A stretch of 64,000 nucleotides of DNA from a virus (IMGVR_UViG_3300025372_000001); one strand, 5' to 3'; numbered from the stretch's first letter, positions 1,494 through 41,868 are shown. The notes: a model not told the origin generated them from the sequence alone. Made by a program: numbers and translations.

Positions 1494-1790
1494 ATGACAC
1501 CGGAATTTGATAAATTTGTGAATGAGATTCTTCATGAGGCAAAGCGATGTGGAGGACCGTCTTTACGTCAATTAAGTGATAAGTCTCGTTATAGATTTAT
1601 GGCTTGTCGTGAAAACCCATATTCTCCGGGATTTAAGAGAATTTATTGGGGACATAAGGATGGTTCATTTGATTACACTAAATGTGCCCGTGATCCTAGA
1701 CCGGGTACAAGCGCCTATGAAGAATGTAAAGATTTACAACGTGCTATTGCTCGTAGACGCCGTTTAGCCGCAAGAAAACGTAGAAAATAA
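1494..1790 (+). CDS. Small basic hypothetical protein with N-terminal leader (FDKFVNEILHE)
   Basis: ORF preceded by TAAATA box; Arg/Lys-rich C-terminus. Confidence 0.7.
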   Translation: MTPEFDKFVNEILHEAKRCGGPSLRQLSDKSRYRFMACRENPYSPGFKRIYWGHKDGSFDYTKCARDPRPGTSAYEECKDLQRAIARRRRLAARKRRK

Positions 1791-1796
1791 ACTATT

Positions 1797-1958
1797 ATGA
1801 ATTTCCTTGAATTATTATTAATCCGTGATGATAAAGTTTTACATGAAATTGTAAAAGATAAAGAAATTATCAATGAGGAGAAAGATAATAAACCGAAGAA
1901 AAGAAAAATTAAGGGTGAACCTTATGCATTAACCGGTAATCTAATTACTGTTCCGTAG
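1797..1958 (+). CDS. Possible 53-aa ORF (MNFLELLLIRDDK...), not in supplied track
   Basis: Manual translation: ATG at 1797, TAG ending at 1958; fills the gap after the previous gene and overlaps the convergent gene by 37 nt. Confidence 0.4.
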   Translation: MNFLELLLIRDDKVLHEIVKDKEIINEEKDNKPKKRKIKGEPYALTGNLITVP

Positions 1959-2539
1959 AATCCTAATATTTTTCTATCTACTGATTTATGAGCAACTGCT
2001 ACTGATCTGACACGAAATTTAGTATTGTTTTTATGATTATAAACCATGTATTCTGTTTCGTAAGGAATATCAAGGGCAATAGATTCTAGCCATTTTTTCC
2101 ATACTTCAATACGTTCTAATTCGTCTACAGAGGTTAACCAGCCATTACCTTTGGCTTCTTCGAAAGTTAAACCAAACATTTCACAATAGGCTTTATTGAC
2201 CCATGTACAACGGCCTTCTGCATCACATTCATATGCACCAGTAGTAATTAAATTACTGGCTATCATTTTAGAACGAAGTTCGGCAAGAGCAACGGCATCA
2301 TCAATTCTGTTGATTTGATCTTTGATAGATTTTCCGCCATTTTTAGATAATTCTTTATCTAAAGATTTGATTAGGGGAAGAACGGTTTCGTTGAGAGTTT
2401 TTTCAAAGTTTTCTTGGGTTTTGATGAGTTTTTTAATAGGTTGAATTAACATTTTCCAACCACCCCACAAAAATCCAACAATAGCGCCTAATGCTACAAG
2501 ACTTTCTAATACTGCTTGAATAATAGTAATATATTGCAT
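1922..2539 (-). CDS. Single-TM membrane protein with C-terminal PAS domain (putative holin-like)
   Basis: Hydrophobic segment aa ~4-32, coiled coil (NGGKSIKDQINR), then PAS signature YECDAEGRCTWVNKAYCEMFGLTFEEAKGNGW...PYETEY; follows the fibre genes. Confidence 0.7.
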   Translation of the reverse strand: MQYITIIQAVLESLVALGAIVGFLWGGWKMLIQPIKKLIKTQENFEKTLNETVLPLIKSLDKELSKNGGKSIKDQINRIDDAVALAELRSKMIASNLITTGAYECDAEGRCTWVNKAYCEMFGLTFEEAKGNGWLTSVDELERIEVWKKWLESIALDIPYETEYMVYNHKNNTKFRVRSVAVAHKSVDRKILGFYGTVIRLPVNA

Positions 2540-2588
2540 CTACAATTTATTTATTAAAATATAAAGGATAAAATAATCTTCTAGAAGA

Positions 2589-2942
2589 TTATTTTATAGT
2601 AACAGTATTATCAGGATTAATGGTACATTCAAAAGGAGGAGTGTATTCGGAAGGTTGCATGGTAGCAATAGGCGTATTACCATATCCTCCAAGAATAAAG
2701 GTGGCTAATTCGCCTCCGTGTTTAAACATTAGTCCTGCATTCGGTCCAAGGGCATTTAAAACCTCTTGTGGATTAACACCGAGTTCGGCAGTTCTCGACC
2801 ATAATTTTTGAAAAGGTTGTTGATGAATATTTAATATTTGTGTAGGTCCGTCCATACACATCTGTATTAATTCGTCAGCAATAACCTGTGCAGTCGTTTT
2901 TTCAATACTCAATGGGGCAAATAATGTATCGATAGTTGGCAT
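2589..2942 (-). CDS. Hypothetical protein downstream of fibre gene (possible fibre assembly chaperone)
   Basis: ORF with TAAATA box upstream; position after fibre gene. Chaperone role is inferred from position only. Confidence 0.5.
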   Translation of the reverse strand: MPTIDTLFAPLSIEKTTAQVIADELIQMCMDGPTQILNIHQQPFQKLWSRTAELGVNPQEVLNALGPNAGLMFKHGGELATFILGGYGNTPIATMQPSEYTPPFECTINPDNTVTIK

Positions 2943-8961: not shown

Positions 8962-10029
8962 ATGATGGATATACAGAATAATAATAAAAGAAAGAAATGG
9001 ACAAACGAGATGATCAAACAGGAAGCTTTGAAGTATAATACTCGTTCTGATTGGGGTAAAAATTCAACTGTTTCGTACTGTCTTGCAATACGTAGAAAAA
9101 TATTAAATGAATGCACTTCACATATGGTTTATAAGACTAATCCTTTTGTTGATGACATAGGTATAATATATGCATATTTATTTGAAGATAATAGTATCTA
9201 TATAGGATTAACGGTATGCCCGGAGAAACGTCGCTCGACACATTTACGCGAAGGAATTGTAAGTGAAAAAATAAAACAAAATATAAAATTTGAATATAAA
9301 ATATTAGAATCTAATATTCCAAATAATATTTTATCGGACAGAGAAAAATTTTATTTGGAATATTATACAAGAGAATTCCCTAATTTAACCCTTTTGAATA
9401 GAAGTAAAGGTGGCTCTAGAGGATCGTTATACAATAAAATAAGCAATGACCAATTAAAACAATCTGCCCTTGATTTTACTTCCAGAATACAATGGCATGA
9501 TAATGCCCCTAAGATGTATTCTATAGCAGTAAGACGAAAATTAGTTGATTGGTGTTGTGCTCATATGGTACCACTGAGAACGGATTGGAATGTTGATAAG
9601 GCAGTAAAAGAAGGTTTAAAATATTCATATGTTTCTGAATGGCAAAAGAATAATAAATCATCGTATAATTTCTTAAACAATAAAGGATTGGTTCATCTTG
9701 TAACTGAACATTTAGAGAAGAAACATCTATCATGGAATGAAGAATCAATCTTAAAGGAAGCGCAGAAATATACATCGTTAAAAGACTGGTACACTTGTTC
9801 ACCCAAGTCATATTCTTCCGCAATTAGATTAAATCTTTTTGATAAATGTTCAGCACATATGACGAGATTAAAAAGACAGTGGGATGCTGATTCAATATTA
9901 GCAGATGCCAAATTATATAACAATATCACAAAATGGATAAAGGCGAGTTCGCGTGCCTATACAGTTGCTAAAGAACTGAACATTTTAAAGGAATGTACTG
10001 CGCATATGGTTAAACATTCTGAACTGTGA
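8962..10029 (+). mobile_element. Free-standing GIY-YIG homing endonuclease with five ~43-aa repeats
   Basis: GIIYAY...IYIGLT motif; repeats of the type W...I..EA.KY....W......Y..A.....L..C..HM. Start at 8962 follows a TAAATA box. Confidence 0.75.
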
Positions 10030-10075: not shown

Positions 10076-10756
10076 ATGCAAATAAAGAGAAAACTGATAG
10101 TCGAATCGCCCTTATACGATCTTCAATATGAAATGGTTCAAGAGAACAAAGAAGCGGATAAGAAAATATATTTTTCTGGCCCCTTTATCGTTTTGAATAA
10201 AAAAAATAAAAATGGTCGCATTTATGAAGAGGATGAAATGGTTCCAGCCGTTAATAATTTTATCGAAGAGTATGTAAAGAAAAATAGAGCGGGGGGTGAA
10301 TGTAATCACAGCGATTCCCCAGATGTATCGTTGGAACGTATTGCTCATAAGATAATATCGCTAAAACGGGATAATAATGATTCTGATGCATATATCGGTA
10401 AATCAGAAGTTATTACTGCTAATCCTGCTGGCCGCATCCTCGAAGGGCTTATAAAATCAAATTTTATATTCGGAGCCTCAACAAAATGCTTAGGTGTCAT
10501 ACAAGAATCATCTAGTGGAAACCTAGTAAAAAATCCTATCTTGATCGCGGTTGACGCCGTATACGAGCCTAGTGGTATGAACTGTTATGTCCAAGGAATT
10601 TTAGAAAATAGAGAATATATTATTGGAGATGATGGAAGGGTGGCGGAGGCTTATGCTGCATTAGATAAAAAACTATCTAAGTATCCTTCCAAGCATTCTG
10701 ATGAGATTCGTGCATATATTGTAGAGAATTTACAAAAGTTCCTTGCTAAGATTTAA
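10076..10756 (+). CDS. gp21: Prohead protease gp21
   Basis: GPFIVLNKKNKNGRIY, RAGGECNH (His), GASTKCLG (Ser), DAVYEPSG; upstream of the core and capsid genes. Confidence 0.85.
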   Translation: MQIKRKLIVESPLYDLQYEMVQENKEADKKIYFSGPFIVLNKKNKNGRIYEEDEMVPAVNNFIEEYVKKNRAGGECNHSDSPDVSLERIAHKIISLKRDNNDSDAYIGKSEVITANPAGRILEGLIKSNFIFGASTKCLGVIQESSSGNLVKNPILIAVDAVYEPSGMNCYVQGILENREYIIGDDGRVAEAYAALDKKLSKYPSKHSDEIRAYIVENLQKFLAKI

Positions 10757-10757: not shown

Positions 10758-11048
10758 ATGGAAAACTTAGAAACCATTTATGAGAGTATGATAACTCCTG
10801 TGCAGGTTGGTCCTTTGACATTTACTAAGGAACCGATTGAATCTAATATTATTGATGTGGAAGAAGGGGATAATTTATCTGAGGAGCAAGAGGTTAAAAT
10901 TGCTAAGCAGATATTGAAGCAAGTGGATCAATTAGATATGGCGGCGGATGAAGCGGCGGTTAAGTCATATCGTAGGAAGTTAGAAAGTATTGCAGATAGT
11001 ATTAGGGATTTGGCTAATCAATTTATTCAAGGACATCCGGGAATTTAA
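10758..11048 (+). CDS. Acidic hypothetical protein with leader (MENLETIYE)
   Basis: Start moved to ATG 10758, directly after the gp21 stop. Confidence 0.65.
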   Translation: MENLETIYESMITPVQVGPLTFTKEPIESNIIDVEEGDNLSEEQEVKIAKQILKQVDQLDMAADEAAVKSYRRKLESIADSIRDLANQFIQGHPGI

Positions 11049-11054: not shown

Positions 11055-11597
11055 ATGAAGTTTAGTGAATTTTATAAATTGTTGGTGGAGAGTCCTAGTA
11101 TGGACAATTCTGTTCCACAATCTTCGGAACAAAATATACAAAATGATGAAAACTTCATGCAGGATTTAATTCCCATGGGAAAGTTGTGGGGTTATAATTT
11201 CTTTCGTCATATAAGAATAAACGGTAATGTATCTTATTATCTTTTAGACGAAAAGAATATTAACATTATTCTTAATGTATCTATTCAAAAGTTAAAATCA
11301 AGTTACGAGGTTAATTATATATGGAAATCTAAATCATCGGAGAAAGGATTAATGACTAAATTCTTTAAGGAATTTTTGATTCCAAAATATAAAGTATTGG
11401 AATCTTCTACAAGTCATAGTACTGTTGCTAAGAATTTTTGGTTTAATTTTATCAAGAATAATTTAGGGGTTTATAGGTTTTCATTTTTAAATCACGGAAA
11501 GAATGAAATCTTTATTGATGATATGGTAACTTTGAAGGTAGAGGAGAACTATATTTGGAAATGGTCATATATTACTTTACGAATTTATGAAAAGTAA
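11055..11597 (+). CDS. GNAT-like protein with capsid-targeting-like leader
   Basis: Leader MKFSEFYKLLVE; KGLMTKFF...LESSTSHS...KNFW resembles the GNAT C-terminal pattern; paralog at 23933-24508. Confidence 0.5.
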   Translation: MKFSEFYKLLVESPSMDNSVPQSSEQNIQNDENFMQDLIPMGKLWGYNFFRHIRINGNVSYYLLDEKNINIILNVSIQKLKSSYEVNYIWKSKSSEKGLMTKFFKEFLIPKYKVLESSTSHSTVAKNFWFNFIKNNLGVYRFSFLNHGKNEIFIDDMVTLKVEENYIWKWSYITLRIYEK

Positions 11598-12282: not shown

Positions 12283-12537
12283 ATGCACAAGAAGGCATTT
12301 AAATTGAACTATCATCATTGTGCAATTTGTGATATTGATGAATATGAATTATTAGATGTTCATCGAATTAAAGAAGGCGAAGAATATTCGTTACAAAATT
12401 GTATTTGTTTATGTTGTAACTGTCATAGGAAACATCATTCAGGATTGATTAAAATTCTGAATAAGAGATATTCATCTAATGGATATTTTCTAGAATATTT
12501 GGATGAAGAGGGTAAAGAAATGTTTAAGATTCTTTAA
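12283..12537 (+). CDS. Small HNH endonuclease
   Basis: CAIC...LDVHRI...NCICLCCNCHRKHH. Confidence 0.8.
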   Translation: MHKKAFKLNYHHCAICDIDEYELLDVHRIKEGEEYSLQNCICLCCNCHRKHHSGLIKILNKRYSSNGYFLEYLDEEGKEMFKIL

Positions 12538-12540
12538 ATA

Positions 12541-12942
12541 TTAGCAATGCCATTTTCTTAAACTTTTGTTCACTCTGCTATTAGGATCATGTGCAGTTTC
12601 AGCAGAAGTTAGTTTAGCTTTTAAGCCTTTCATACGGGAACAGAATGATTTTCTACGTTTAGCAGATTTGCTTCCTTTTTTCAATTTAGAAGGATCGGTA
12701 GTTACGGCAGTTTTTAGTTTGGAACCGGGATGTTCTTTTTTATAAGATTCGACTCCTTTTTTATTAAGTCCGCCTTCGGGATTTTTACCTTCTTTTCTTT
12801 GCCATGCAGGGGTTGAACTTTCTTCAACGGGAACACAATCAGGAACCATCTTCTTTCCTTTCTTTTTCATTCCTACTTTTTTATAGCCTTTCCAACAAGC
12901 TTCCAAGATAGAATTTATATAGTCATCGAATTTATCAGTCAT
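12541..12942 (-). CDS. Conserved basic T4-like-phage protein (DUF6321-like) with leader
   Basis: CWKGYKKVGMKKKG...AWQRKEGKNPEGGLN...RRKSFCSRM...SRVNKSLRKWHC, recalled from T4-like cyanophage proteins. Confidence 0.6.
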   Translation of the reverse strand: MTDKFDDYINSILEACWKGYKKVGMKKKGKKMVPDCVPVEESSTPAWQRKEGKNPEGGLNKKGVESYKKEHPGSKLKTAVTTDPSKLKKGSKSAKRRKSFCSRMKGLKAKLTSAETAHDPNSRVNKSLRKWHC

Positions 12943-12978
12943 ATAATTTTATTTACATATGACTGATAAGATTAATGA

Positions 12979-13221
12979 TTATTTCGGTGCAGGAATATAT
13001 TCAGGGTCTGGGATTATATATTCATCATCATAGAAGCGTTCCCATTCACATTTTTTATGTCCTTCACAAGTATAGAAATACCAATAATGATGTTCTTCCG
13101 CTGTTTCCATTTTAAACCAGCATTTCACATTTCCCCAACAAGGTTGATTAAGAGAAGAGATATGATCCCAATTACATTCTTCGCCATGTTCACCGGTCTT
13201 ATATGATTTTGATTTAAACAT
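12979..13221 (-). CDS. Small Cys/His-rich protein, copy 3 of tandem family
   Basis: True start ATG 13221 (MFKSKSY...PCWGNV...CEGH...YIP); overlaps the stop of copy 2. Confidence 0.7.
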   Translation of the reverse strand: MFKSKSYKTGEHGEECNWDHISSLNQPCWGNVKCWFKMETAEEHHYWYFYTCEGHKKCEWERFYDDEYIIPDPEYIPAPK

Positions 13222-13429
13222 TTGGTTCAGGAATATAATCAGGATATGGACGTTTGCAGAAATCTTCCCATTTTTCATATTCAACAGGAACAAATTCAGA
13301 AATGTCATCTGGATAAAGTTCTTTCATAAATATATCCCAATAAGAGGTTTCTTCCGTTGAGAAACTTATGAAGTTACATTCTGCTCCACCACAACAATTA
13401 GATTTTTTATATGATTTTGATTTAAACAT
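13214..13429 (-). CDS. Small Cys-rich protein, copy 2 of tandem family
   Basis: MFKSKSY..CCGGAECNFISFSTEE...YIPEPNV. Confidence 0.7.
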   Translation of the reverse strand: MFKSKSYKKSNCCGGAECNFISFSTEETSYWDIFMKELYPDDISEFVPVEYEKWEDFCKRPYPDYIPEPNV

Positions 13430-13649
13430 TTAGTTCAGGAATATAATAATCGTTGTTGTAATTATCAGCTAATTCTCTATGTCCTTCACATGCATGTATC
13501 CATTCACAATCAGTAAAATCTTCATTGCATTGTTCATCTACAACTTCGACATCTCCCCAACAAGGTTTCTCTTCTGTTGAAAGAAAGGCATAGGTGCAAC
13601 CATCGCCACAACATGCCCCAGGATTATAAGATTTACTATAATGTTTCAT
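13422..13649 (-). CDS. Small Cys/His-rich protein, copy 1 of tandem family
   Basis: SKSY..CCGDGC...LSTEEKPCWGDV...CEGH...YIPELNV. Confidence 0.7.
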   Translation of the reverse strand: MKHYSKSYNPGACCGDGCTYAFLSTEEKPCWGDVEVVDEQCNEDFTDCEWIHACEGHRELADNYNNDYYIPELNV

Positions 13650-13651
13650 AA

Positions 13652-14998
13652 TTAAATTTCCTCAATAATAGATTCTTGTGTTTCCGTATCAATTTCACCT
13701 TTATCAAGTTCAATCGATTCTGCGGTCAGAAAACGAAAAGATTTCAATTTGTATACTTCCCATTGATTAGGTTTATCGACTCTAACAATAACCCCTTCGG
13801 CAGGAGTATTCGGCACCTTTACACAATATCTACAATCCTTTTCTAGATAATCATCAATCATTTGTTGAAGAAAATCTTCTTGCCAATGATTATCTTTTTG
13901 AAGATCATATAAATCTTTCACTTTACCGTAGTAATGAACATATGGTGTTTTGATACCATAACGGTTACAATACTCTACCATTTGAGGATGAGATAGTTCA
14001 AAAACATCGCCGTTGTTATTAGTGAAAGTCATTCGATAAACAATACAATCTAATGAACCTTCTGCACAACCATAATCGTATGGTTTTTGGATCATAGCGC
14101 CAGTAGGAGTATAGCCAACAATTTCACCATAAAAACTATAACCTTGTTTTAGAGAAGGAGATAGTCTATCAGATGCAATTTTCCAAACATCAGTATCATA
14201 ATAATGATTATTTTCTTTATCATCATTTAATGCTTGATTCTTTATGACACTACGAGATGAAAAAAGAATGCCGTATTCTGTATCTTTTACATCAGCACCA
14301 AAGAACTTAGCAATCTTTTCTTTTAGAGAAAGTTTCTTTTTAACTATAACATTGGAAACAACAAATGATGTGCCGTGGTACTTTTCAGTAATAGCAATAG
14401 TATCGTCCCAAGCAAGTTTAGACATATTTTTCTTTAACTGTTCAGTTGAAGGATGAAAATGAAATTGATTTTCAACTAATTTAGATTGATATTTCTTGAC
14501 ATTACCTCTAGTCTTTTTAGAAGTATTATTAGGAATACGTTGCCCTTGTGGAATATATTTCCGACATAGTTGATGATCTAAAATAGTATCAAAATCAGTT
14601 CCTTCAAAAGTGCCATCAATCACAACTGTTTTACCAAGAACATCTTTGATAAAGGATTCGAGAGAAGAAACAGGAATAATATATCCTTCACTTTTTTGTG
14701 AACGTAAGCTCAGGGCTTTCACCCGACCTGATGAAGAGAAGAACGCCTTAGTAGTTTTATCCGCATTCAAATCTTTATCAGAATATGAATTAGAATAAGA
14801 AAGAAAATCTTTACTGATTGCACATTCTAAAGGAAAATAACAATATAGTCCCGGTTGAGAATTAATACCGGTAATTACTACATTTCCTTGAACATTTGCT
14901 AGAAGAAGACGATCCGCATTAGGGTGACTTCTAAAAGAATCAATTCGTACAATTGATGCGAGATAATTAATGTTGTGATCTTTTGATTTTGAGAACAT
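13652..14998 (-). CDS. RNA ligase, DRB0094/Rnl2-like family
   Basis: N-terminal HPNADRL domain; motif I TEKYHGTS; FYGEIVG; EGVIVR; YKLKS. Confidence 0.8.
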   Translation of the reverse strand: MFSKSKDHNINYLASIVRIDSFRSHPNADRLLLANVQGNVVITGINSQPGLYCYFPLECAISKDFLSYSNSYSDKDLNADKTTKAFFSSSGRVKALSLRSQKSEGYIIPVSSLESFIKDVLGKTVVIDGTFEGTDFDTILDHQLCRKYIPQGQRIPNNTSKKTRGNVKKYQSKLVENQFHFHPSTEQLKKNMSKLAWDDTIAITEKYHGTSFVVSNVIVKKKLSLKEKIAKFFGADVKDTEYGILFSSRSVIKNQALNDDKENNHYYDTDVWKIASDRLSPSLKQGYSFYGEIVGYTPTGAMIQKPYDYGCAEGSLDCIVYRMTFTNNNGDVFELSHPQMVEYCNRYGIKTPYVHYYGKVKDLYDLQKDNHWQEDFLQQMIDDYLEKDCRYCVKVPNTPAEGVIVRVDKPNQWEVYKLKSFRFLTAESIELDKGEIDTETQESIIEEI

Positions 14999-15003
14999 GA
15001 TTT

Positions 15004-15032
15004 ACTGTATCATGGTTTAGAGGTTAAGTCAA
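15004..15032 (-). promoter_or_regulatory. Sigma70-type early promoter TTGACT-17-TACAGT
   Basis: -35 at 15027-15032, extended -10 at 15004-15009, 5 nt before the RNA ligase ATG. Confidence 0.8.
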
Positions 15033-15039
15033 TTGCTTT

Positions 15040-15513
15040 TTAAATATCAGGTAAAGGATGTTTTAAACATTCAGGAACTTCAATACGAGCAAATCTAGCC
15101 CAATATTGTTTTGTAAGCTTACTGTTATAAGGCCATTCTTTTTCAGTTAAAAACTCAGAAAACGTGATATAAGTGTCATGTTCTTTGAGATAATCTTTAA
15201 TAGGTGGCGCTTTCTCTTTAATGGTATCTGGAACAGTAGTATTTGCCACTAATGCTTCAAAAATTTCATTACTATTAATAGTTACGTCTTCTTGATATGG
15301 CGCAATAACATTATCAATAAATTCTTCAAGGGTATCAAATAATATGATTGCTGCTTCCCATGCTAAACGATTATTTCTAAAACATTCTTCATAATTTTTT
15401 GTATAGAATTTTCCGGTGATACAATCAAATAATCCTATAGGACCATCCAAATCATCTTCTGCTACATTAAATCCGTATTCTCTTAACTGTTGTTTTGCTA
15501 TTTTGTTATCCAT
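15040..15513 (-). CDS. Hypothetical protein, early paralog family member
   Basis: YGFNVAEDDLDGPIGLFD motif shared with three neighbouring genes. Confidence 0.65.
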   Translation of the reverse strand: MDNKIAKQQLREYGFNVAEDDLDGPIGLFDCITGKFYTKNYEECFRNNRLAWEAAIILFDTLEEFIDNVIAPYQEDVTINSNEIFEALVANTTVPDTIKEKAPPIKDYLKEHDTYITFSEFLTEKEWPYNSKLTKQYWARFARIEVPECLKHPLPDI

Positions 15514-15518
15514 AAATT

Positions 15519-15902
15519 TTATCTCTTTAAAAATCCTTCATTGTTACTAACCTTACCACATGCTAATCCTGCTTCATTAATTAATGCAAATTTAACAAAT
15601 TCTTTATCGAAGTTCTTGAATACTTCATAAAATGCAACTTTATTTCTTGGATCATTACTGGCTCTTAAGGAAGCAAAATAACCAGGAAGTCCACCGACTT
15701 TATATTCAACCGCCTCCACGTAAACATATTTATGATTAGGATTTTCACGGGGAACATTCTTAATTGTGTTATTAGTACAATCAAAAATATCAATAGGTCC
15801 ACGCATATTAACAGGGCTTACATAAAAACCATATTGCGCACAAATATTACGAAAATCTTGTTCAGTGAATTTGAGAGAGGAAGAAAGGAATGAGTTAGAC
15901 AT
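15519..15902 (-). CDS. Hypothetical protein, early paralog family member
   Basis: FRNICAQYGFYVSPVNMRGPIDIFD. Confidence 0.65.
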   Translation of the reverse strand: MSNSFLSSSLKFTEQDFRNICAQYGFYVSPVNMRGPIDIFDCTNNTIKNVPRENPNHKYVYVEAVEYKVGGLPGYFASLRASNDPRNKVAFYEVFKNFDKEFVKFALINEAGLACGKVSNNEGFLKR

Positions 15903-15923
15903 TATAAGTAATTATTCCGAATT

Positions 15924-16292
15924 TTATAGATTTCTACGTCGTATTTCATAAAATCCTAAACAAGACTTGACCGCAGTATGTATTATAGGAAATAATAATT
16001 TCGCTTTTTTATATAAAGTATATTTTGATATTGCTCCAAAACTGGCTTCTACTTCATTACAAAATAAACTAATAATATTAGGATTTTCAAACTTGTAAGG
16101 ATTCCTTTGCCATTGTTTATAATGCATTATTTCATGACGAATAATGACTTTTCGAGTGATCCAACTATTATAATTGTCCCATCCTTTTAAATATAGTTCA
16201 TTTAAAATAAGAGTAGGTATAGATTTTTTAATATTGAAACATCCCGCAAAAGGTTGTTCTTTATCATCTATATAAATTCTTTTAAATGTCAT
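15924..16292 (-). CDS. HEXXH zinc-metallopeptidase-like protein
   Basis: IIRHEIMHYKQW followed by a downstream E (NEVEA). Confidence 0.55.
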   Translation of the reverse strand: MTFKRIYIDDKEQPFAGCFNIKKSIPTLILNELYLKGWDNYNSWITRKVIIRHEIMHYKQWQRNPYKFENPNIISLFCNEVEASFGAISKYTLYKKAKLLFPIIHTAVKSCLGFYEIRRRNL

Positions 16293-16300
16293 AACAATTA

Positions 16301-17054: not shown

Positions 17055-17057
17055 GTT

Positions 17058-17534: not shown

Positions 17535-17536
17535 AA

Positions 17537-18812: not shown

Positions 18813-19715
18813 ATGTTAGATGAATTAAAGCCTATTTTTGAACAAATTGATAAAAACATCTTCAATGAAGATACCCTTAAACAAGTATCTGCTATCATCG
18901 AAGCAAAAGTCAATGAAAAAACCGAAGCGCGTGTACAACTAGCAGTTGAATCCGCCACTCAAACTCTTGATGAAGAAATGACAGAAAAAATGACCCATCT
19001 TGTCAAAACCATCAAAGAGAATATTGACAAAGACCACTTAACTAAAATCAAGTACGTCGTCGAACAACTTAATACTGATCATCTTGCCAAGCTTGTTACT
19101 CTTAAAGAAAATTATGAAAATCTTCTAAAGAAAACCGCTCAAGAACATAAGATGACACTTGTTGAAAGTGTTGATACTTTCCTTGAGAAATATATCGATA
19201 AGAATCTTCCTAAACAAGTTATCGAAGAAGCTGCTAAAAACAATCACGTTAAAAATCTTCTACAAGAAGCTCGTAAAGTTCTTGGCGTTGATGAAAAGTT
19301 TGTCAAAACCAATATCAAAGAAGCATTCATTGATGGTAAGAAACAAATGGATAAACTTATTCAAGAAAATACTCAATTAAAGCAATCTAAAAATAAAGAA
19401 GAAGTTCAACGTTTTCTTACAGAGAAGACTGCTAATCTTCCTACTGAACTTGCTAAATTCCTTAAAAAAGGTTTTGAAAATAAACCACTAAATGTCGTTA
19501 AAGAAAATTTCGATTATATGGTCGAAATGTATGATGTCAGAGAGAAGAAAAAGAAAACAGCTCTTCTTAATGAATCTAAACAAATTTCCAACGTTGATCG
19601 GTCCTCAATCTCCGGTGATGCACTAATAACTGAAAGTTCTTCTAAGAACAATTCCAGTACTTCTCCTCTAAATCCTTTAGAAGACATGTATCTAGACGTT
19701 CTTGCAAGAAAATAA
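18813..19715 (+). CDS. gp22: Prohead core scaffold protein gp22
   Basis: Coiled-coil, Glu/Lys-rich; VDTFLEKYI and many [ILV]xE sites; immediately upstream of gp23. Confidence 0.8.
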   Translation: MLDELKPIFEQIDKNIFNEDTLKQVSAIIEAKVNEKTEARVQLAVESATQTLDEEMTEKMTHLVKTIKENIDKDHLTKIKYVVEQLNTDHLAKLVTLKENYENLLKKTAQEHKMTLVESVDTFLEKYIDKNLPKQVIEEAAKNNHVKNLLQEARKVLGVDEKFVKTNIKEAFIDGKKQMDKLIQENTQLKQSKNKEEVQRFLTEKTANLPTELAKFLKKGFENKPLNVVKENFDYMVEMYDVREKKKKTALLNESKQISNVDRSSISGDALITESSSKNNSSTSPLNPLEDMYLDVLARK

Positions 19716-19740: not shown

Positions 19741-21294
19741 ATGGTAAATCCATCCTCATCCTACGTAGACAGTGCGCCCGGTTTCATTAACAAAGATCGT
19801 GGTCGCCAATTAATTAACAAGTGGAGTAAAATCCTCGAATTCACTGATAGCCAGACACCCCCAATTAAAGGCCATCAGAACAAATTAGCAACCGCTATCA
19901 TTCTTGAAAACCAAGAACGCTCACTTAAGGAAAACGGTTTCCTTCGTCAGCAAATGGTCCAAGAAAATGGTATGGTCGCTGGTGGTGCCTTTGCTGGTAC
20001 TCCTTGGGGCGGTGGTACTCCTGGTTCCGCTCCCTCAACTAACGGTCAATACGGTAATGCCCTAAATGCTTCCGATTGGTATGCTCCTGGTGATGCTCGT
20101 CTTCCTAAGACTCTCATTCCTATGATTCGTCGTACATTCCCTGAGCTAATCTCTCATGAAATCGTCGGTGTTCAACCTATGAGCGGTCCTGTCGGTCTTG
20201 CCTTCGCCCTTCGTTATCAATACGACCAATCCCCTCTTGCATGTAGTCCTTATAATGATAAAGGCTGTACATTCGATCCTTCCAAGTTCAATCCAAGCGG
20301 ACATCCGTTTGACACCACTGGTCTAGGTTCTGGTGAAGCAGGTTATCAAAATCTATTCACTGCACACACAGGTATCACCGCTGCTGGTCTATCCGGTAAT
20401 GCTGATTTCGCTGTTCCTGCAATGGATTCCGGTGTTGCTCAACTTCTAAGCCATTTCGAAGCAAGCAGCAATATTCCTACTATGTCTCTTAAAATCGAGA
20501 AAACCGCTGTTGAAGCCGGTACTCGTAAATTAGGAACTAGCTGGTCTATCGAACTAGAACAAGACCTTATGAATATGAACGGTATTGACATTGATGCAGA
20601 AATGACCAATGTTATGTCCTACGAAATTCAGGCCGAAATTGACCGCGAAATGATCATCCGTATGATCCAAGTAGCTCTTAATGCAGGTCTAAATACCGGT
20701 TATTCTATCTGGCGTCCACAACTTGCAGATGCTCGCTGGTTTGCAGAACGTGGTGTTGACTTCTATGCCAAAATCGTTGTAGAAGCTAACCGTATGGCTA
20801 TTCGTAACCGTCGTGGTCCTGCTAACTTCATCGTTGCAACTCCAAAGGTTTGTACCATCCTTCAACTTCTTCCTGAATTCCGTCCATTCGAAATCAGTTC
20901 CAATATCCAAGTTCACCCAAATGGTGTTGCTCGCGTTGGTTCTCTCGCAGGACAATTCAATATCTATCGTGATACTCGTTCTGAAGCACAATACCTAGCC
21001 GGTGCCCGTGCAACTCAAATCGAATATGCACTACTTGGATATAAAGGAACAGAATTCTATGATACAGGTCTAGTTTATTGCCCTTATATTCCAGTTCTTG
21101 TACAGCGGACCATCAGTCCTCTTACTATGACACCAAACGTAGGTATGATGACTAGGTACGGAGTCATAGATTCCCTATGGGGGGCTAGTAATTTTTACCA
21201 TATCATTATCGTTAAGGATATTGATCGTAACCATTATACTTCCAGTCTTAGTGTTCCTACTTCTTCTCTACCTGTTTACTCAGTGTCTATCTAA
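19741..21294 (+). CDS. gp23: Major capsid protein gp23
   Basis: IPMIRRTFPELISHEIVGVQPMSGPVGLAFALR, AVEAGTRKL, EIQAEIDRE, GYKG...GLVYCPYIP, MMTRYG. Confidence 0.95.
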   Translation: MVNPSSSYVDSAPGFINKDRGRQLINKWSKILEFTDSQTPPIKGHQNKLATAIILENQERSLKENGFLRQQMVQENGMVAGGAFAGTPWGGGTPGSAPSTNGQYGNALNASDWYAPGDARLPKTLIPMIRRTFPELISHEIVGVQPMSGPVGLAFALRYQYDQSPLACSPYNDKGCTFDPSKFNPSGHPFDTTGLGSGEAGYQNLFTAHTGITAAGLSGNADFAVPAMDSGVAQLLSHFEASSNIPTMSLKIEKTAVEAGTRKLGTSWSIELEQDLMNMNGIDIDAEMTNVMSYEIQAEIDREMIIRMIQVALNAGLNTGYSIWRPQLADARWFAERGVDFYAKIVVEANRMAIRNRRGPANFIVATPKVCTILQLLPEFRPFEISSNIQVHPNGVARVGSLAGQFNIYRDTRSEAQYLAGARATQIEYALLGYKGTEFYDTGLVYCPYIPVLVQRTISPLTMTPNVGMMTRYGVIDSLWGASNFYHIIIVKDIDRNHYTSSLSVPTSSLPVYSVSI

Positions 21295-23932: not shown

Positions 23933-24508
23933 TTATTTCGTTAACATGTATCTATATTTTCCTGCCAGGGGTTTACTAATCATATTCCCATAATATTCAT
24001 TCATTTCTTCTTTAGAATTTAATTGTTTTACAATTTTAACATTCTTATAATCATATTCAGCAATACTAATCTTAAATCCTTGATTGATGAAATTATCGAA
24101 ATTTGAATACCAAAATTTAAACCCTTTTTCCGTTAATGAATCATCAGAAAGAACAAAATTATATTTGTTCATAAGAAAATAAATGTAAAAATAATACATT
24201 AATCCTTTTAAATTATATTTTTTTCCGAAAGAACTTGTCATAGTGGTTATTATTCCATCTTTATATGCATCTCCTGAATAGGTTGCAATCTTTGTATTAT
24301 TCAGAACTAAACTATAAACTCTAATTTTAGAGTTGCTTAAAGAAGTATGAATATAAACACCAATCATTTCTTTCCCTACCTGAAATTCTCCTACCTTTTC
24401 ATAATTATTATATTTGTTGAAATATTGATTTTCGTCTCGATCAATTACATCGATAGGATCAATCCGTAAAGGCATTTCTAACAAAGTTATTAACTCATTA
24501 AACTTCAT
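23933..24508 (-). CDS. GNAT-like protein with capsid-targeting-like leader
   Basis: Start ATG 24508, leader MKFNELITLLE; KGLMYYFY...VLSDDSLTEKGFKFW. Confidence 0.55.
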   Translation of the reverse strand: MKFNELITLLEMPLRIDPIDVIDRDENQYFNKYNNYEKVGEFQVGKEMIGVYIHTSLSNSKIRVYSLVLNNTKIATYSGDAYKDGIITTMTSSFGKKYNLKGLMYYFYIYFLMNKYNFVLSDDSLTEKGFKFWYSNFDNFINQGFKISIAEYDYKNVKIVKQLNSKEEMNEYYGNMISKPLAGKYRYMLTK

Positions 24509-24512: not shown

Positions 24513-24857
24513 TTATTCTTCAAATGAATTGATTCTTTTAACTACTTTACCTTTTTTAGAAGGTCCGCAATAGAAATATTCTCCTGGATTAGGGGCATTA
24601 AACACTTGATCAGTGGATACTATTGCTTTAATTATAATAGAAGGTTCCTCTTCCACGGCAAAGATATGTTGAGCATGTTCCAATGCAAATCTAGGAGACA
24701 TTGTGACAAAATCCATATCTTCAAAAGTAGTTCCTGATGATTCTAATTTTGCTCTTAAAATAGTAACAAACCCATTTTTATTTCCTTGATCTTTTAAAGA
24801 TGGGCCTTTCATCCCTTCTCTACCTTCTAATAATAAACATAATTCATTAAACTTCAT
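24513..24857 (-). CDS. ADP-ribosyltransferase-fold-like protein with capsid-targeting-like leader
   Basis: Leader MKFNELCLLLE; VTILRA (R), DFVTMS..FALEH (T-x-S), NPGEYFY (E). Confidence 0.55.
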   Translation of the reverse strand: MKFNELCLLLEGREGMKGPSLKDQGNKNGFVTILRAKLESSGTTFEDMDFVTMSPRFALEHAQHIFAVEEEPSIIIKAIVSTDQVFNAPNPGEYFYCGPSKKGKVVKRINSFEE

Positions 24858-25448: not shown

Positions 25449-25706
25449 ATGGAATCTCCTGATTTAGAAAACTTATATGAAGCATTATTAGCACCCGCTA
25501 AAGACCCTAAACAAATTGTTCATGAATATGCTGTTAAAGCTAATGGTGCTCTTGCATCAGCATTATTATCTATTCAACAAATAAGAACAGCATTATATTC
25601 GATCAATGATACTGAACAATTACAAACCAAATTCCAAGAATATGATGCCGATATTAAGGATGTTCAAATGGGATTAGAGAATTATATATTAAAATATTTT
25701 AAATAA
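25449..25706 (+). CDS. Helical hypothetical protein with leader (DLENLYE)
   Basis: ORF after TATAAATA. Confidence 0.7.
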   Translation: MESPDLENLYEALLAPAKDPKQIVHEYAVKANGALASALLSIQQIRTALYSINDTEQLQTKFQEYDADIKDVQMGLENYILKYFK

Positions 25707-31320: not shown

Positions 31321-32076
31321 ATGGAAAACGACCTAGTTTCACTTTACGAAAATAATTATCTTAAACCACAAGCTGCTGCTTTGATTGTGGAAAAACAAGA
31401 AGTTGAAGAAGATGAGGATGAAAAGACTCCTGCTCCTAAAACCGCCAAATCTAAAAAGAAAGCAAAAATGTCTAAAGAAGAAATCGGCGCAACCCTTTAT
31501 GACTCTCATGACCGTTCTTCTTTCAATAGTGCCTTTAAAGCATTTATGGAAGAATTTGATATGGGCGAAAATGCATTCAGTGATGATCATGAAGGCGGAG
31601 AAGAAGACACTTTTGAATTCTCTGATACAGAAGAAGAAAAAGATTCTTATACTCTAGATGAACTTCGTTCCATGACTCTTGGAGAAATTGCTCTTCTTCT
31701 TACAGGTGGCACTGATGAAGGCGGCGAAGAAGATTTCGACTTTGATGGTGAAGATTCCGTTCCTACTGAGTCTTATGCCCATGAAGGCGGTGGTAAACAT
31801 CTAGGTAACACCCTAACCCGTGATGGTAAGCCAAGTAAGCAAGCTCCGACTACCCGTGTGAAACCAAATGGTGATGCTGATTTCTCTAAACAAGAAACCG
31901 GTTTTGAACCAGAAGATACTGAAGGTTCCGAAGGTTCTCATTTAGGTAACACCCTAACCCGTGATGGTAAACCAAGTAAGCAACCTGCTACCACTCGTGT
32001 AAAAGGTAATGGTGATGCTGATTTCTCTAAACAGAAAACAGGTTTCGGTAAAAAAGAAGGTGAACGCCTCTTTTAA
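31321..32076 (+). CDS. Acidic, probably internal head protein with 47-aa internal duplication
   Basis: Leader MENDLVSLYE; HLGNTLTRDGKPSKQ..TTRVK.NGDADFSKQ.TGF occurs twice. Confidence 0.7.
   Translation: MENDLVSLYENNYLKPQAAALIVEKQEVEEDEDEKTPAPKTAKSKKKAKMSKEEIGATLYDSHDRSSFNSAFKAFMEEFDMGENAFSDDHEGGEEDTFEFSDTEEEKDSYTLDELRSMTLGEIALLLTGGTDEGGEEDFDFDGEDSVPTESYAHEGGGKHLGNTLTRDGKPSKQAPTTRVKPNGDADFSKQETGFEPEDTEGSEGSHLGNTLTRDGKPSKQPATTRVKGNGDADFSKQKTGFGKKEGERLF
31798..32047 (+). repeat. Direct repeat, period 141 nt, inside CDS
   Basis: Copies start at 31798 and 31939 (cat[c/t]taggtaacaccctaacccgtgatggtaa...). Confidence 0.9.
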
Positions 32077-36504: not shown

Positions 36505-37071
36505 ATGAATTATTCGAAATATTTCGCCCAAATCCTTCTTGAAGATACTGACATCGGAAATCCTACTCATGATAATGAAAGTGATAATCCTCTTGCTTCT
36601 TTCCTTGATGACGGCACAAATGAAGATGCCTTTGATACCGAAGGCATTGCTGACAGTCTAAAGAAAATTGAAGATAATTTTGATAAAAAAATGGCTCTTC
36701 TTGATAATATTGACGGAATGGATAAACATGAAATCAATTCTCGTCTTGACCAACTAGAAGAATATCTTACTACTCTTCGTGCTTTCGTTGATTCTAAAGA
36801 TGAAGTGGATATGAAAAATCCTTATTCAGTCATGGCGAATATCATTCGTCGGGATACTGTTAAGAAAACTAACTTTGATCAAGTCACTAAAGCTATTGAA
36901 AATTATAAGAATGCATCAAAAAAAGAAGAACAAGCAACTGAACAAGCTGCAAGAGAAGTTAAAGATTCTCTCGGAGATTTAGCAAAAGCCCGTAAATCAG
37001 TAACTTCTACTGGTGGTTCGGAAAGTCCTGAACAAACTTCCGGTCCTTATGACGATGATGACACTTTTTAA
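36505..37071 (+). CDS. Acidic hypothetical protein with leader (YFAQILLE)
   Basis: ORF after a TAAATA box. Confidence 0.7.
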   Translation: MNYSKYFAQILLEDTDIGNPTHDNESDNPLASFLDDGTNEDAFDTEGIADSLKKIEDNFDKKMALLDNIDGMDKHEINSRLDQLEEYLTTLRAFVDSKDEVDMKNPYSVMANIIRRDTVKKTNFDQVTKAIENYKNASKKEEQATEQAAREVKDSLGDLAKARKSVTSTGGSESPEQTSGPYDDDDTF

Positions 37072-38339: not shown

Positions 38340-38810
38340 ATGACTGAAAAATTTGATGCTTATGTGAATAAACTGATAACAGAATTGCTTACGCCTAAGA
38401 ATAAGCGTAAAGAGCATAAATCAAGATATTGGGATACGGGAATGTATTATAAGGCACAACCTCGTAAAGTTCGTTCCATGAATACTAAGACGGCTTCTCA
38501 AAGAACCAAGTTAGGCAATCAACAATATATTGGTAATATTTGGACAAAAGAGGGACCAAGAGGTAAAAATAAAAGTGAGAAAGACCCCCATGAAATCACC
38601 ATTGCAAAAGGAATTGGTTCTCATATTAAAAGAGATGGAATAAATCCTAAGAAAGTTGGTTCATCTATTAACTCTAAACAAGGTGATATGGAAATCAAAT
38701 ATAATCTTGCTAATGGAGATAGTATGGTTGGTAAGAAAGTTGAAAAGGATTATTTTCAAGGCGGCGTGCAAAGAAACCACATGAAACGTTCATTAAATAA
38801 TAAAAAATAA
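38340..38810 (+). CDS. Basic hypothetical protein with leader (FDAYVNKLITE)
   Basis: ORF after a TAAATA box; Lys/Arg-rich. Confidence 0.7.
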   Translation: MTEKFDAYVNKLITELLTPKNKRKEHKSRYWDTGMYYKAQPRKVRSMNTKTASQRTKLGNQQYIGNIWTKEGPRGKNKSEKDPHEITIAKGIGSHIKRDGINPKKVGSSINSKQGDMEIKYNLANGDSMVGKKVEKDYFQGGVQRNHMKRSLNNKK

Positions 38811-39568: not shown

Positions 39569-39576
39569 ATAAGTTA

Positions 39577-40521
39577 ATGCAAAACACTTATTTGATTTGG
39601 ATTCCTTCAATTCAAAAAAATATTCGATTTAAAGAGCTTACCAATAGTCAATATCGAATAATTCTCAAGAATTTAGACGATGATACTGATTTAGACTTTC
39701 TTTACAACCTAAACAATATCATAAAAAATAATATTGTGGATGATTTTGACTATAAGTTATTCACTATTATTGATAGATTTGTCATTTTTCTTTATTTTAA
39801 GATTCTTAGTTGTAGTCCTTTACTTGATTTGGTTAAAAAATGTGAAAAATGTGAAAAAGAAGATAAAATAAGAATTAATTTAAATGATTTATTGGATGTA
39901 TTAGGTCCAGTTATTGATAAATCATTCATTCATCATGTAGAATACGATAATTATCCTATTTCTGTTATATGTGATGTTCCTACTATTGATTACGAATACC
40001 AAAATCTTCTGTTTTGTGCTGATTATAACATCAAAACTGATACCTTAGAGAATAATATCGAGAAATATTTGTTCGGATACATTAAACAATTGGTTCATAA
40101 TGGAACAATCATTGAATTGAATAAATTATCGATGCAAGAGAAGAAAATAGCAATTAATAAAATACCTGCTAATATCATATTGAAGATTAAACAAGAATAT
40201 TTGGAACCGATTTTTCAAGAATTTAGAAATGTGGTTTTTTTAGATATGAAATGTAAAGATTGTGGAACCAATTTTGAACTAAAATTAGAAACCAATAATA
40301 TTAATCCATTATTGAAGATGTTTTTTCGGGATAATACCTTGAATGGATTATTAGGAGAATATTTTAATGTTGCATCAACAGCGCATATATCTAATGAATT
40401 TTTTAATGATTCGTCTCCAAGAGAACTAAACATTTTACATGATTTTGCTAAGTCAACACACACTTCTAATGATAAACCCCAAAACAATCCCAATGAGATT
40501 GACTTGTTTGCTCAAAATTAA
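39577..40521 (+). CDS. Baseplate hub assembly protein (gp26/gp51-like)
   Basis: FKELTNSQY..., two CxxC motifs (CEKC, CKDC); baseplate cluster. Confidence 0.55.
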   Translation: MQNTYLIWIPSIQKNIRFKELTNSQYRIILKNLDDDTDLDFLYNLNNIIKNNIVDDFDYKLFTIIDRFVIFLYFKILSCSPLLDLVKKCEKCEKEDKIRINLNDLLDVLGPVIDKSFIHHVEYDNYPISVICDVPTIDYEYQNLLFCADYNIKTDTLENNIEKYLFGYIKQLVHNGTIIELNKLSMQEKKIAINKIPANIILKIKQEYLEPIFQEFRNVVFLDMKCKDCGTNFELKLETNNINPLLKMFFRDNTLNGLLGEYFNVASTAHISNEFFNDSSPRELNILHDFAKSTHTSNDKPQNNPNEIDLFAQN

Positions 40522-40538
40522 TAATTAAATATTTCCAT

Positions 40539-41369
40539 ATGTCTGATCCAGTTCAATTTAACGATATTCTTGCCCTTCTTGATAGTGCCAACAAAACATT
40601 AGAAACAGAAATCTACGTTCCGTCTCTAAACACTTCCTTTACCGCAAAGGCATTGAATGCTAATCATACTAAGAATATAGTTAAGACTACAGTAGAAGGA
40701 CCATTTGCAGATAATCAATTCACTATTATCATGTATACCATTCTTTCAGACATTTTTGCTAATAAACTTGATTTAAAAACTCTTAATTTATATGATAAAT
40801 TATTAATTCTTCTTCAACTAAGAGCAAAGAATATTAAAGATGAAGTAAAGCTAACCTTTGTATCAGAAGAAGGTAAACAAGCGGAAAAGAGTATATCTTT
40901 AGCTAAACATGTGGAAAAACTTAAGAAGAATTCTCCTACATTTGTCAATCAAACAATTCATATTGGTATTGATGAAAATAACAAATATGATTTTATATTA
41001 AATCTTCCTTCTGTGTCAGAAGAGTTTACTTTTGAGAATCAATTATATCAGAATAAGTTATCAAAGATTGTAGAAGATGATGTAAAGCAAATGAAGGAAT
41101 TGATTGCTCCTATTTTTCTTAGTAGGACTGCTCCTTTTATTAAATCCATTATTATTAATGACAAAACAATTGATTTAGTTTCATTAAGTGTAACAGAGCG
41201 TATTGCTATTGTAGAAAGATTGCCTTCCAAAGCAATTCTAACTATCTTAGAAAAAGTAGATGAAGTGTACGGTAAAGTTCTTCAAGACGCTACCAAGATA
41301 ACTAAGACAATTGATGGTGTCAGTTATGTTGCTAATATCAAAATTGATGCCTCCTTCTTTATTGGATAG
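40539..41369 (+). CDS. Baseplate hub assembly protein (gp26/gp51-like paralog)
   Basis: IYVPSL...DKLLILLQLRAKNI...ERIAIVERLP...IDASFF. Confidence 0.55.
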   Translation: MSDPVQFNDILALLDSANKTLETEIYVPSLNTSFTAKALNANHTKNIVKTTVEGPFADNQFTIIMYTILSDIFANKLDLKTLNLYDKLLILLQLRAKNIKDEVKLTFVSEEGKQAEKSISLAKHVEKLKKNSPTFVNQTIHIGIDENNKYDFILNLPSVSEEFTFENQLYQNKLSKIVEDDVKQMKELIAPIFLSRTAPFIKSIIINDKTIDLVSLSVTERIAIVERLPSKAILTILEKVDEVYGKVLQDATKITKTIDGVSYVANIKIDASFFIG

Positions 41370-41868
41370 AAGTTGGGTTATTTTGTTGTTGCTGCTGATA
41401 TTGGCCTTGTTGCGGAGGAGAAGGTTGCTTAACCGTAGGCGGATTGATATGAGCATTTAACTGTGTCAAAGCTTGAATAATATATTGAGTAATATCAGTA
41501 AGATACTTGTCATTGGCCTTCATTGATCCTATTTTTTGTAAGGCCGGAACCAATTTAGCTTGTTTGATAATACCAACTAAATTCTTCCATTCTTGTTTTA
41601 ATTGAGCATTGGGATCATTACCTGGTTTTGGTTTATATTGATTAGCATTCGGTGTTGGAGCAGTAGGTTGATTACCTTGAGGTTGTTGCGCAGGGGCTTG
41701 CTGTTGAATATTCGGAGCTAATTCATGCAAAATGGCTAATTGATAAGAATTAAGCTCATTCTTTTCCAACATGGTTCGCAGTTGATCATCGGATAATTCT
41801 CCATTTAAAATACTTTTTCTAAAAGAGTCAGCATAGAGTGCATGTTCATAAAGAGAGGTTGAGGTCAT
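41359..41868 (-). CDS. Gln/Pro-rich hypothetical protein
   Basis: ORF after a TAAATA box; low-complexity Q/P tracts. Confidence 0.65.
   Translation of the reverse strand: MTSTSLYEHALYADSFRKSILNGELSDDQLRTMLEKNELNSYQLAILHELAPNIQQQAPAQQPQGNQPTAPTPNANQYKPKPGNDPNAQLKQEWKNLVGIIKQAKLVPALQKIGSMKANDKYLTDITQYIIQALTQLNAHINPPTVKQPSPPQQGQYQQQQQNNPTSIQ

Follow-up and report, generated by a model that had tools for sequence, protein, structure and literature searches.

Short N-terminal leaders on late proteins of a T4-like phage: candidate capsid-targeting sequences of several classes

Why should late phage proteins with different bodies begin with short peptides that end alike? The question is raised by a 64-kb stretch of DNA from the virus IMGVR_UViG_3300025372_000001 (64,000 nucleotides; the whole of it is called the window below). 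The window is part of an approximately 262-kb T4-like myovirus, most likely a marine one; its proteins map to a 262,045-bp contig in a cluster look-up. The initial annotation described about 11 unrelated late proteins with one N-terminal leader ending in [ILV]-x-E, compared it with the capsid-targeting sequence (CTS) of T4 internal proteins (IPs), and proposed a large system that loads cargo into the head. For T4, the capsid-targeting principle was already recognized in the 1990s. From the comparisons reported here, the leaders are probably T4-type CTSs or short head propeptides, but they are of several kinds, and their fates may differ.

Leader classes and late expression

All 11 N-terminal peptides were reproduced exactly by translation at the start coordinates and on the strands given for them. 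Each ends in [ILV]-x-E, but they do not represent a single shared leader. Three classes and one singleton were distinguished, namely class A (pattern MKF(N/S)E(L/F)..LL(V)E; 3 genes), class B (MT.(K/E)FD.(Y/F)(V/I)N.(I/L)..E; 3 genes) and class C (...(L/I)YE; 4 genes). The leaders are 8–15 residues long and charged, with a Glu at the end, and signal peptides or membrane anchors were rejected as readings of them. The 11 carriers are listed below, where a slash follows the terminal Glu, a late box is a TAAATA sequence upstream of the gene, and gp21 is the prohead protease; genes are named hereafter by their first coordinate.

11055..11597, plus strand: class A leader MKFSEFYKLLVE/SP; 180-amino acid (aa) body, isoelectric point (pI) 9.0; third gene of the gp21 operon
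23933..24508, minus strand: class A leader MKFNELITLLE/MP; 191-aa body
24513..24857, minus strand: class A leader MKFNELCLLLE/G; 103-residue domain with a modelled ADP-ribosyltransferase (ART) fold; own TAAATA box
1494..1790, plus strand: class B leader MTPEFDKFVNEILHE/A; 98-aa very basic protein, pI 10.1; late box
12541..12942, minus strand: class B leader MTDKFDDYINSILE/A; basic DUF6321 domain, pI 10.0; late box
38340..38810, plus strand: class B leader MTEKFDAYVNKLITE/L; 156-aa very basic protein, pI 10.1; late box
36505..37071, plus strand: singleton leader MNYSKYFAQILLE/D; 188-aa acidic protein, pI 4.4; late box
10758..11048, plus strand: class C leader MENLETIYE/S; 96-aa acidic protein directly after gp21; candidate protein of the prohead core, with a position like that of T4 gp67/gp68
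25449..25706, plus strand: class C leader MESPDLENLYE/A; 85-aa acidic protein; late box
31321..32076, plus strand: class C leader MENDLVSLYE/N; 251-aa very acidic protein (59 Asp + Glu); late box
41359..41868, minus strand: class C-like leader MTSTSLYE/H; 169-aa Gln/Pro-rich protein; late box; the weakest member

The bodies had been called unrelated, which holds with one correction: genes 11055 and 23933 encode distant paralogs (29% identity over 75 residues, E = 2e-4 in a small database; 21–26% identity when aligned), and an all-against-all BLASTP comparison links no other pair. The very basic and very acidic cargos reported initially were recognized again, with pI values of 10.0–10.1 in class B and of 4.4–4.6 in the singleton and three of the four class C proteins. 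The protein of 31321–32076 contains a tandem duplication of an approximately 37-residue unit (HLGNTLTRDGKPSKQ..TTRVK.NGDADFSKQ.TGF). One further late-promoter gene, 1922–2539 (minus strand), matches the motif only loosely and was dropped from the set. Its product consists of an N-terminal hydrophobic, transmembrane-type helix and a PAS domain (Pfam PAS_3, 27.7 bits) and is kept in the relative L005; a sensor-type PAS domain is unusual for a late gene of a T4-like phage.

The tripeptide itself is common: [ILV]-x-E with the Glu at residues 8–16 is present in 12% of internal windows and at 23 of the 89 N-termini. In ungapped BLOSUM62 comparisons of residues 2–12, the class B pairs scored 40, 32 and 32 and the best class A pair 34, compared with 26 for the 95th percentile of a null distribution (maximum over all pairs of random internal 11-mers). 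[LI]YE lies inside the first 13 residues of four proteins, with 0.37 expected. A pattern derived from the T4 CTS (an aromatic residue, a hydrophobic residue at i+3, and then [LIV]-x-E by residue 16) matches seven N-termini of the window versus 0.54 expected, although its P value is optimistic because the pattern was refined after sight of these sequences; classes A and B and the singleton fit it, and class C does not. In the match to the T4 CTS determinants (residues 4/7 and P3/P1), register and sequence differ from those of T4. When the window and two distant relatives (G001 and G002) were combined, the class A and B patterns were found 11 times at N-termini versus twice in approximately 134,000 internal residues. 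The class A and B leaders far exceed chance expectation and are nearly confined to N-termini; class C is statistically weaker.

TAAATA is the core of T4-type late promoters. It lies 11–15 nt before the ATG of many genes in the window and was usable as a late-gene marker, lateness being judged by this promoter motif only. As the initial annotation had stated, most leader genes (8 of 11) have the box, 11–15 nt upstream of the ATG. Among the remaining three, 10758 and 11055 come after gp21, starting 1 and 6 nt beyond the respective preceding gene, and 23933 is separated by 4 nt from the late gene 24513 that it follows. Leaders are encoded by 8 of 33 genes with their own late box versus 3 of 56 without one (P = 0.016), and by 11 of 36 late genes versus 0 of 53 others (P = 1.6e-5) when the three operonic genes are counted as late. 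No class A, B, C or singleton leader was found on the replication and early-cluster genes of the window. It had been allowed initially that the motif might be as frequent in early genes; within the window it is not. The early-versus-late census covers the window and G001 and G002.

Conservation and portability of the leaders

Close relatives of the gp21-type protease in IMG/VR amount to five contigs only, with 63–67% identity. Orthologs in these five relatives keep their leaders: MNLETIYE/S, MNTHSKLELIYE/N, MKFNEFYKLLVE/SP, MTEQFDEYVTSILE/S, MTPEFDKFIQEILTE/A and MESPQLENLYE/S, the last at the start of the L004 ortholog of gene 25449. The leader of gene 11055 is kept in the L001 ortholog and that of gene 1494 in the L005 ortholog, and gene 10758 is kept directly after gp21 in L001, L003 and L005. 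Orthologs of 38340–38810 were found in L013 and L017, whereas only close orthologs were found for the singleton, 36505. The five relatives also contain extra leader carriers, with MSDLTTIYE/S (150 aa) and MTLHQLYQLLIKE (293 aa).

The leader is the best conserved block between the paralogs 11055 and 23933: M1, K2, F3, E5, L9, L10, E11 and P13 are invariant, whereas the next approximately 35 residues cannot be aligned. Leaders of one class share only 5–7 of 11 third codon positions, which indicates that their likeness is kept at the protein level and is not the product of recent duplication or gene conversion.

A degenerate DNA pattern scan of IMG/VR for the class B leader retrieved both orthologs and other bodies. 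The new bodies are a 223-aa basic protein (MTNKFDSYVNSILE/E), proteins of 235/236 aa (MTPKFDQYINSILLKE/SP) and the proteins of 69–71 aa described below; including the three of the window, the class B leader is found on at least six unrelated bodies, five of which are basic. New class A bodies behind TAAATA are proteins of 185 aa (MKFNEFDTLLE/S), 79 aa (MKFNELVKLLLKE/D) and 89 aa (MKFNELVNFLLE/K). The leaders are a portable module on mature proteins that, one paralog pair apart, are unrelated.

G002 is a 227-kb genome rated 100% complete, and its gp23 and gp21 are 53 and 33% identical to those of the window, respectively. The T4-derived pattern is found at five of its N-termini versus 1.4 expected, and four of the five lie behind TAAATA (Fisher P = 0.007). 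G002 encodes the class B leaders MISFDAFVSSILE/A and MNFDKAVNQILKE/S, and a 75-aa leader-bearing gene is located between its gp21 and gp22. In G001 (162 kb; gp23 52% identical), the pattern is found six times versus 1.7 expected (P = 0.008).

The ART-fold protein and other putative cargos

An ART-like protein had been proposed among the cargos, and for 24513–24857 this proposal is supported at the fold level by an AlphaFold2 (AF2) model and fold searches. The family comprises 178 representatives at 50% identity in a profile search and has no Pfam model. In the AF2 model, built from 51 aligned sequences, the mean confidence (pLDDT) is 88.6; residues 1–11 fall below 50 and form a detached helix outside the fold. 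Foldseek searches of the PDB gave weak matches only (CNFy domain 4, Arr, KptA/Tpt1, PARP16, pertussis toxin and TreX), and among AFDB clusters TM-scores reached 0.68, some of the entries being named ADP-ribosyltransferase. In an exhaustive VIA-align search, the top 50 matches were nearly all ART-superfamily chains, including KptA/Tpt1, pertussis and diphtheria toxins, Arr, PARPs, ParT and DarT, with a modest best Z of 7.0. By this modelling, the domain is an ART fold. R35, T52, H61, N90 and E93 are invariant in the 51 sequences, as are A58 and G98 in the family, and R35, T52 and E93 would be catalytic if the protein is an ADP-ribosyltransferase. Comparison with curated ART sequence families gave no Pfam match (ART-PolyVal included) and no PDB profile match, and the sole PHROG match is to the C-terminal region of PHROG 2579.

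The leader of this protein (start at 24857) is identical at 9 of 11 residues to that of its unrelated neighbour (start at 24508), whereas homologs in which the ART domain is N-terminal carry different leaders (MIKLKSLIE/G, MKIFELVSE/D, MRAFEFIIE/N, MIFRQWLE/E and MNLNKLHTLLE/A, and the further form M.F..WLE/). This suggests that the leader follows the phage and not the protein family. Approximately 20 leaderless homologs begin at the first conserved residue of the domain, and elsewhere the leaders stand directly before that residue; the contigs coding for leader-bearing and leaderless homologs are 0.5–2 kb, too short to relate the leader to T4-like genomes. A complex prediction for gp21 and residues 1–40 of the ART-fold protein gave a score of 0.01, which counts neither way.

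The ART-fold domain is found either alone or as one part of larger proteins that also have chitinase-class-I-like, PolyA_pol head and M90 peptidase domains. It also aligns weakly (Z 4.3, rank 29) with residues 1418–1609 of a pre-ejectosome protein of cyanophage A4 (PDB 9k3a_B), which hints that ART-like domains may also ride in podovirus ejection proteins.

The class B protein of 12541–12942 belongs to DUF6321 (Pfam PF19846, 67 bits), homologs of which were found in 497 marine phage records, podoviruses included. The homolog in cyanophage S-E7 is annotated as 'T4-like structural protein, T4 GC0119', and T4-GC119 appears, with 13 counts, among the structural proteins detected in purified S-SM1 virions (Sullivan et al. 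2010, Table S8, PMC3037559). This homologous domain is the one tie of the leader set to experimental virion data, and an indirect one. In Synechococcus phage S-RIM2, a 108-aa protein that starts with MKSYKQFMSE/S, near the T4 CTS (L008:2676–3002, minus strand), adjoins a 407-aa T4-GC119-type basic protein (L008:3004–4227, minus strand), in which the C-terminal DUF6321 module is preceded internally by ...SFQQFQE/K.

The label 'GNAT-like', used initially for part of the cargo and considered here for the paralogs 23933 and 11055, is unproven and at most a weak lead. A language-model feature similarity of 0.91 links 23933 to GNAT clusters (Atlas), but there is no Pfam match and no PDB profile match, and the AF2 model from a shallow alignment is poor (pLDDT 49.6); GNAT structures match this model with Z values of 3.8–4.5 among many unrelated folds. 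Family searches returned no informative family for the remaining cargo bodies.

Function of the leaders and comparison with known systems

Near-identity searches against sequenced phages found no near relative of the window (approximately 33% G+C), and its DNA-level matches are weak, involving only marine cyanomyoviruses and one Pelagibacter phage. By family searches, the window contains genes for a neck protein, tail sheath stabilizer, gp21-type head maturation protease, gp23, tail sheath, tail tube, large terminase, baseplate hub/wedge and an endolysin domain, as well as the early genes for RNA ligase, primase, single-stranded DNA-binding protein, replicative helicase, UvsX and DNA polymerase. 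The head-assembly genes that bear on the leaders are the following:

10076..10756, plus strand: gp21-type prohead protease (Peptidase_S77), N-terminus MQIKRKLIVE/SP
18813..19715, plus strand: gp22-like scaffolding core protein, N-terminus MLDELKPIFE/Q; late promoter; directly upstream of gp23
19741..21294, plus strand: gp23 major capsid protein (Pfam Gp23, 296 bits; PHROG 138)

The protease matches PHROG 207 (4.8e-42), Pfam PF03420 (67.5 bits; cutoff 27) and T4 gp21 (PDB 5JBL; 1.2e-7), and its catalytic His and Ser align with those of 5JBL. The KLIVE remarked on initially is present in its N-terminus, which is probably an autocleaved propeptide. The gp22-like protein has no family match in PHROG and Pfam searches. 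It contains 20 [LIV]-x-E sites, whereas its composition predicts 8.0; no protein of the window has a higher density, as expected for a protein degraded by a gp21-type enzyme. In gp23, a candidate maturation site (...QMVQE/N) lies near residue 73; when the protein is aligned to T4 gp23, this VQE is just N-terminal to the stretch matching the LTE/A site of T4.

The gp21 and gp22/gp23 genes, which are adjacent in T4, are approximately 8 kb apart in the window. In the intervening segment (12283–18530) lie an HNH_2 gene, genes with leaders, the RNA ligase gene and a series of small genes that are on the minus strand and have no late box; L003–L005 have shorter versions of this insertion. Between the neck/head-closure gene and gp21 lies a 355-aa gene (8962–10029, plus strand; PHROG 20046, two matched stretches), which is present as a 252-aa version in L004 and L005 and is lacking in L001; it looks like a mobile or optional insert.

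We infer docking, cleavage, packaging and ejection along the following lines. Each protein would be made late with an amphipathic N-terminal peptide of 8–15 residues, by which it would dock to the scaffolding core (the gp22-like protein and gp21) during prohead assembly. The S77 protease would cut after the Glu of [ILV]-x-E, and the mature protein would be freed inside the head. The class A and B cargos, that is, the ART-fold enzyme, two fold-unassigned paralogs and three very basic, possibly DNA-binding proteins, would be counterparts of T4 IPI–III and Alt, would stay with the DNA and would probably exit with it at infection. For the class C proteins, an accessory role in the core or scaffold, as with T4 gp67 and gp68, is more likely, because one member keeps its place beside gp21, all but one of the four are acidic and conservation extends past the Glu.

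For the leader set as a whole, targeting plus cleavage is favoured to a limited degree; it is favoured more strongly for classes A and B and the singleton, and for class C the case is evenly balanced. Ejection into the host is put forward tentatively, at somewhat less than even likelihood. The cargo-loading system proposed initially thus retains its basis in the S77 protease, late genes, T4-like leaders and portability. Its description as large is to be taken in a relative sense, about 10 proteins of T4 having such N-terminal propeptides.

Several observations weigh against targeting plus cleavage. The class C pattern is found eight times at N-termini versus 50 times internally in the window and the two distant relatives, a modest, approximately 2.6-fold enrichment. 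Class C conservation also continues beyond the Glu, with a small or polar residue after (L/I)YE and then two mostly hydrophobic residues and often a Pro, so that the motif may be a binding motif instead of a cut site. In some relatives, proteins of 69–71 aa have the N-terminal half of class B (MTPKFDKFVNNLVSKYG...) without the usual [LIV]-x-E tripeptide. Internal [LIV]-x-E sites show no depletion in the cargo bodies (ratio 1.06 versus 1.09 in other proteins), a comparison that is uninformative. A hydrophobic-x-E also stands just before the internal ART domain in 37 of 70 multidomain homologs, and the Glu may belong partly to the ART family; these internal sites may alternatively be protease sites at domain boundaries. 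In G001, the N-terminal matches are not tied to the crude late-promoter proxy (2/60 versus 4/143), so that replication failed in part. Similar N-termini are also present on unrelated proteins, e.g. that of a HicA-like toxin starting with MKFNEFYRLLEENGW (L041:421, plus strand). RNA polymerase subunits of giant viruses (nucleocytoplasmic large DNA viruses) start with MTEKFDEFIN (L010/L011). Leader scans based on the motif alone over-call, as these RNA polymerase subunits, HicA and non-coding frames were all false positives.

The 69–71-aa proteins adjoin gp21 (L014:10158, minus strand; L015:3919, plus strand; L018:149, plus strand). They keep MT.KFDKFVN.L.S, with KYG(K/E)KE in place of [ILV]-x-E, and recall the T4 result that targeting is separable from the determinants of cleavage.

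Among the alternatives, the one that survives best concerns class C and comes close to an even chance: the four ...(L/I)YE proteins would be prohead-core or scaffold accessory proteins, analogues of gp67/gp68 that are degraded or kept as internal peptides and are not cargo, and injected cargo would be marked only by classes A and B and the singleton. Gene 10758 lies directly after gp21 in all close relatives, G002 has its small leader-bearing gene between gp21 and gp22, and three of the four proteins are small and acidic like T4 gp67, which itself starts with MEGLIE/A. However, sequence homology to gp67/gp68 is lacking, and the protein of 41359–41868 is neither acidic nor encoded close to head genes. 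This alternative refines the explanation by targeting and cleavage and does not contradict it.

A more elaborate arrangement, which we consider unlikely, is that several address codes sort cargo by prohead site or time and by fate (ejected with the DNA, or retained or degraded), with protease sites at domain boundaries additionally freeing effectors such as the mini-ART in the head. FD.(Y/F)VN.IL.E (14–15 residues) would be mainly the code of very basic, DNA-associated proteins, MKFNE(L/F)..LLE that of enzymes and (L/I)YE that of acidic proteins.

With low probability, the leaders could be conserved N-terminal docking or oligomerisation helices for another late process (tail/baseplate assembly, or chaperone, membrane or portal association), which are uncleaved and not directed to the capsid, the Glu being incidental. 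Several leader genes do lie among tail/baseplate genes, beside those for sheath, terminase and hub, and both the class C conservation past the Glu and the class B variants lacking [LIV]-x-E agree with such a role. Yet scattered IP and alt genes are found in T4 as well, one set of leaders lies inside the gp21 operon, and the leaders end in the motif cut by the co-encoded S77 family, as do the N-termini of the phage's own gp21 and gp22. The separability of targeting and cleavage in T4 (PMC9026906) can also explain the class B variants without the Glu.

That the leaders have no shared function, and reflect residual paralogy, codon bias at AT-rich gene starts and post hoc grouping of a tripeptide found in 12% of internal windows, is improbable: 11055 and 23933 are paralogous, the three low-complexity basic class B bodies could be old paralogs, class C is weak and the patterns were set after seeing the data, but against this stand the 11 N-terminal class A/B matches versus two in 134,000 internal residues, leaders conserved where the adjoining sequence diverges and third codon positions differ, one ART body with different leaders across phages and the local leader in the window, and the replication in G002 together with its late-gene association.

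If targeting and cleavage hold, a class A or B leader, a late promoter and a genomic S77 protease would together form a sequence rule for recognizing head-carried proteins, probably delivered to the host, of an uncultured marine jumbo T4-like phage. Orphan genes, namely the minimal ART-fold protein and the three very basic proteins, would be flagged as effectors of the first minute of infection, and natural leader variants could be added to the tools for packaging proteins in T4. Of particular use are the class B leader, a trend for leader class to track cargo charge and, as a parallel to Alt, a minimal ART-fold cargo. A literature search found no paper describing such leaders in marine T4-like phages. 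The gain lies in annotation and breadth and not in the concept, because the principle was established in T4 and varied CTS cargo was anticipated in its relatives (PMC9026906), a review proposing the CTS as an evolutionary route for packaging varied proteins.

In the T4 record, IPII and IPIII start with MKTYQEFIAE/A and IPI with MKTFKEF...; the other N-termini are gp67 MEGLIE/A, gp68 MLLIPETHELVLE/N, gp21 MNEPQLLIE/T, gp22 MLKEQLIAE/A and gp24 MAKINELLRE/S. Six T4 propeptides were taken from this record. The propeptides of T4 IPs, of 10–19 residues, target the core, for which the first 10 are enough in IPIII; targeting is governed by residues 4 and 7 and processing by residues 8 and 10, and Asp at position 10 stops cleavage but not targeting (PMC9026906). 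The CTS is present on IPI, IPII, IPIII and the Alt propeptide and is removed by gp21 (Mullaney & Black 1996, via PMC9026906). The window resembles this system in its short N-terminal peptides on late, unrelated and often basic proteins encoded by scattered genes, in the i, i+3 spacing of hydrophobic or aromatic residues (class C apart), in [LI]-x-E followed by a small residue, in the co-encoded S77 protease and, as with Alt, in a predicted ART (24513–24857) among the cargo. It differs in that class B has 14–15 residues with an FD.(Y/F)(V/I)N core that is not found in T4, in that seven non-class-C carriers are encoded in 64 kb versus four known cargos in the 169 kb of T4, and in that the system is known from sequence alone. 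Homologs of T4 IPs, Alt, gp67 and gp68 were not detected among the proteins of the window. The gp21 and gp22 N-termini end in LIE and IAE in T4 and in IVE and IFE in the window. As in T4 gp67, gp68, gp22 and gp24, there are small acidic proteins beside gp21 and N-termini of 6–13 residues that end in hydrophobic-x-E; unlike gp67/gp68, class C has (L/I)YE with conserved residues past the Glu, and its gene is located after gp21, not before it.

The propeptides of ejection proteins in phiKZ, 201phi2-1 and SPN3US are likewise associated with a related protease, cleavage C-terminal to Glu and many packaged proteins, and SPN3US gp53 and gp54 are diverged paralogs with identical N-termini (PMC5694885). 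Most of those propeptides exceed 100 residues and have a small P3 residue (S/A/G-x-E), whereas the leaders of the window are of T4 length with [ILV] at P3 (PMC5694885). The polyvalent proteins of phages and conjugative elements (Iyer et al. 2017, PMC5512222) are comparable in that the ART-fold domain of 24513–24857 recurs in multidomain proteins with lysozyme-like, nucleotidyltransferase and peptidase domains; in the window, by contrast, it is a single 103-residue domain with a leader of its own.

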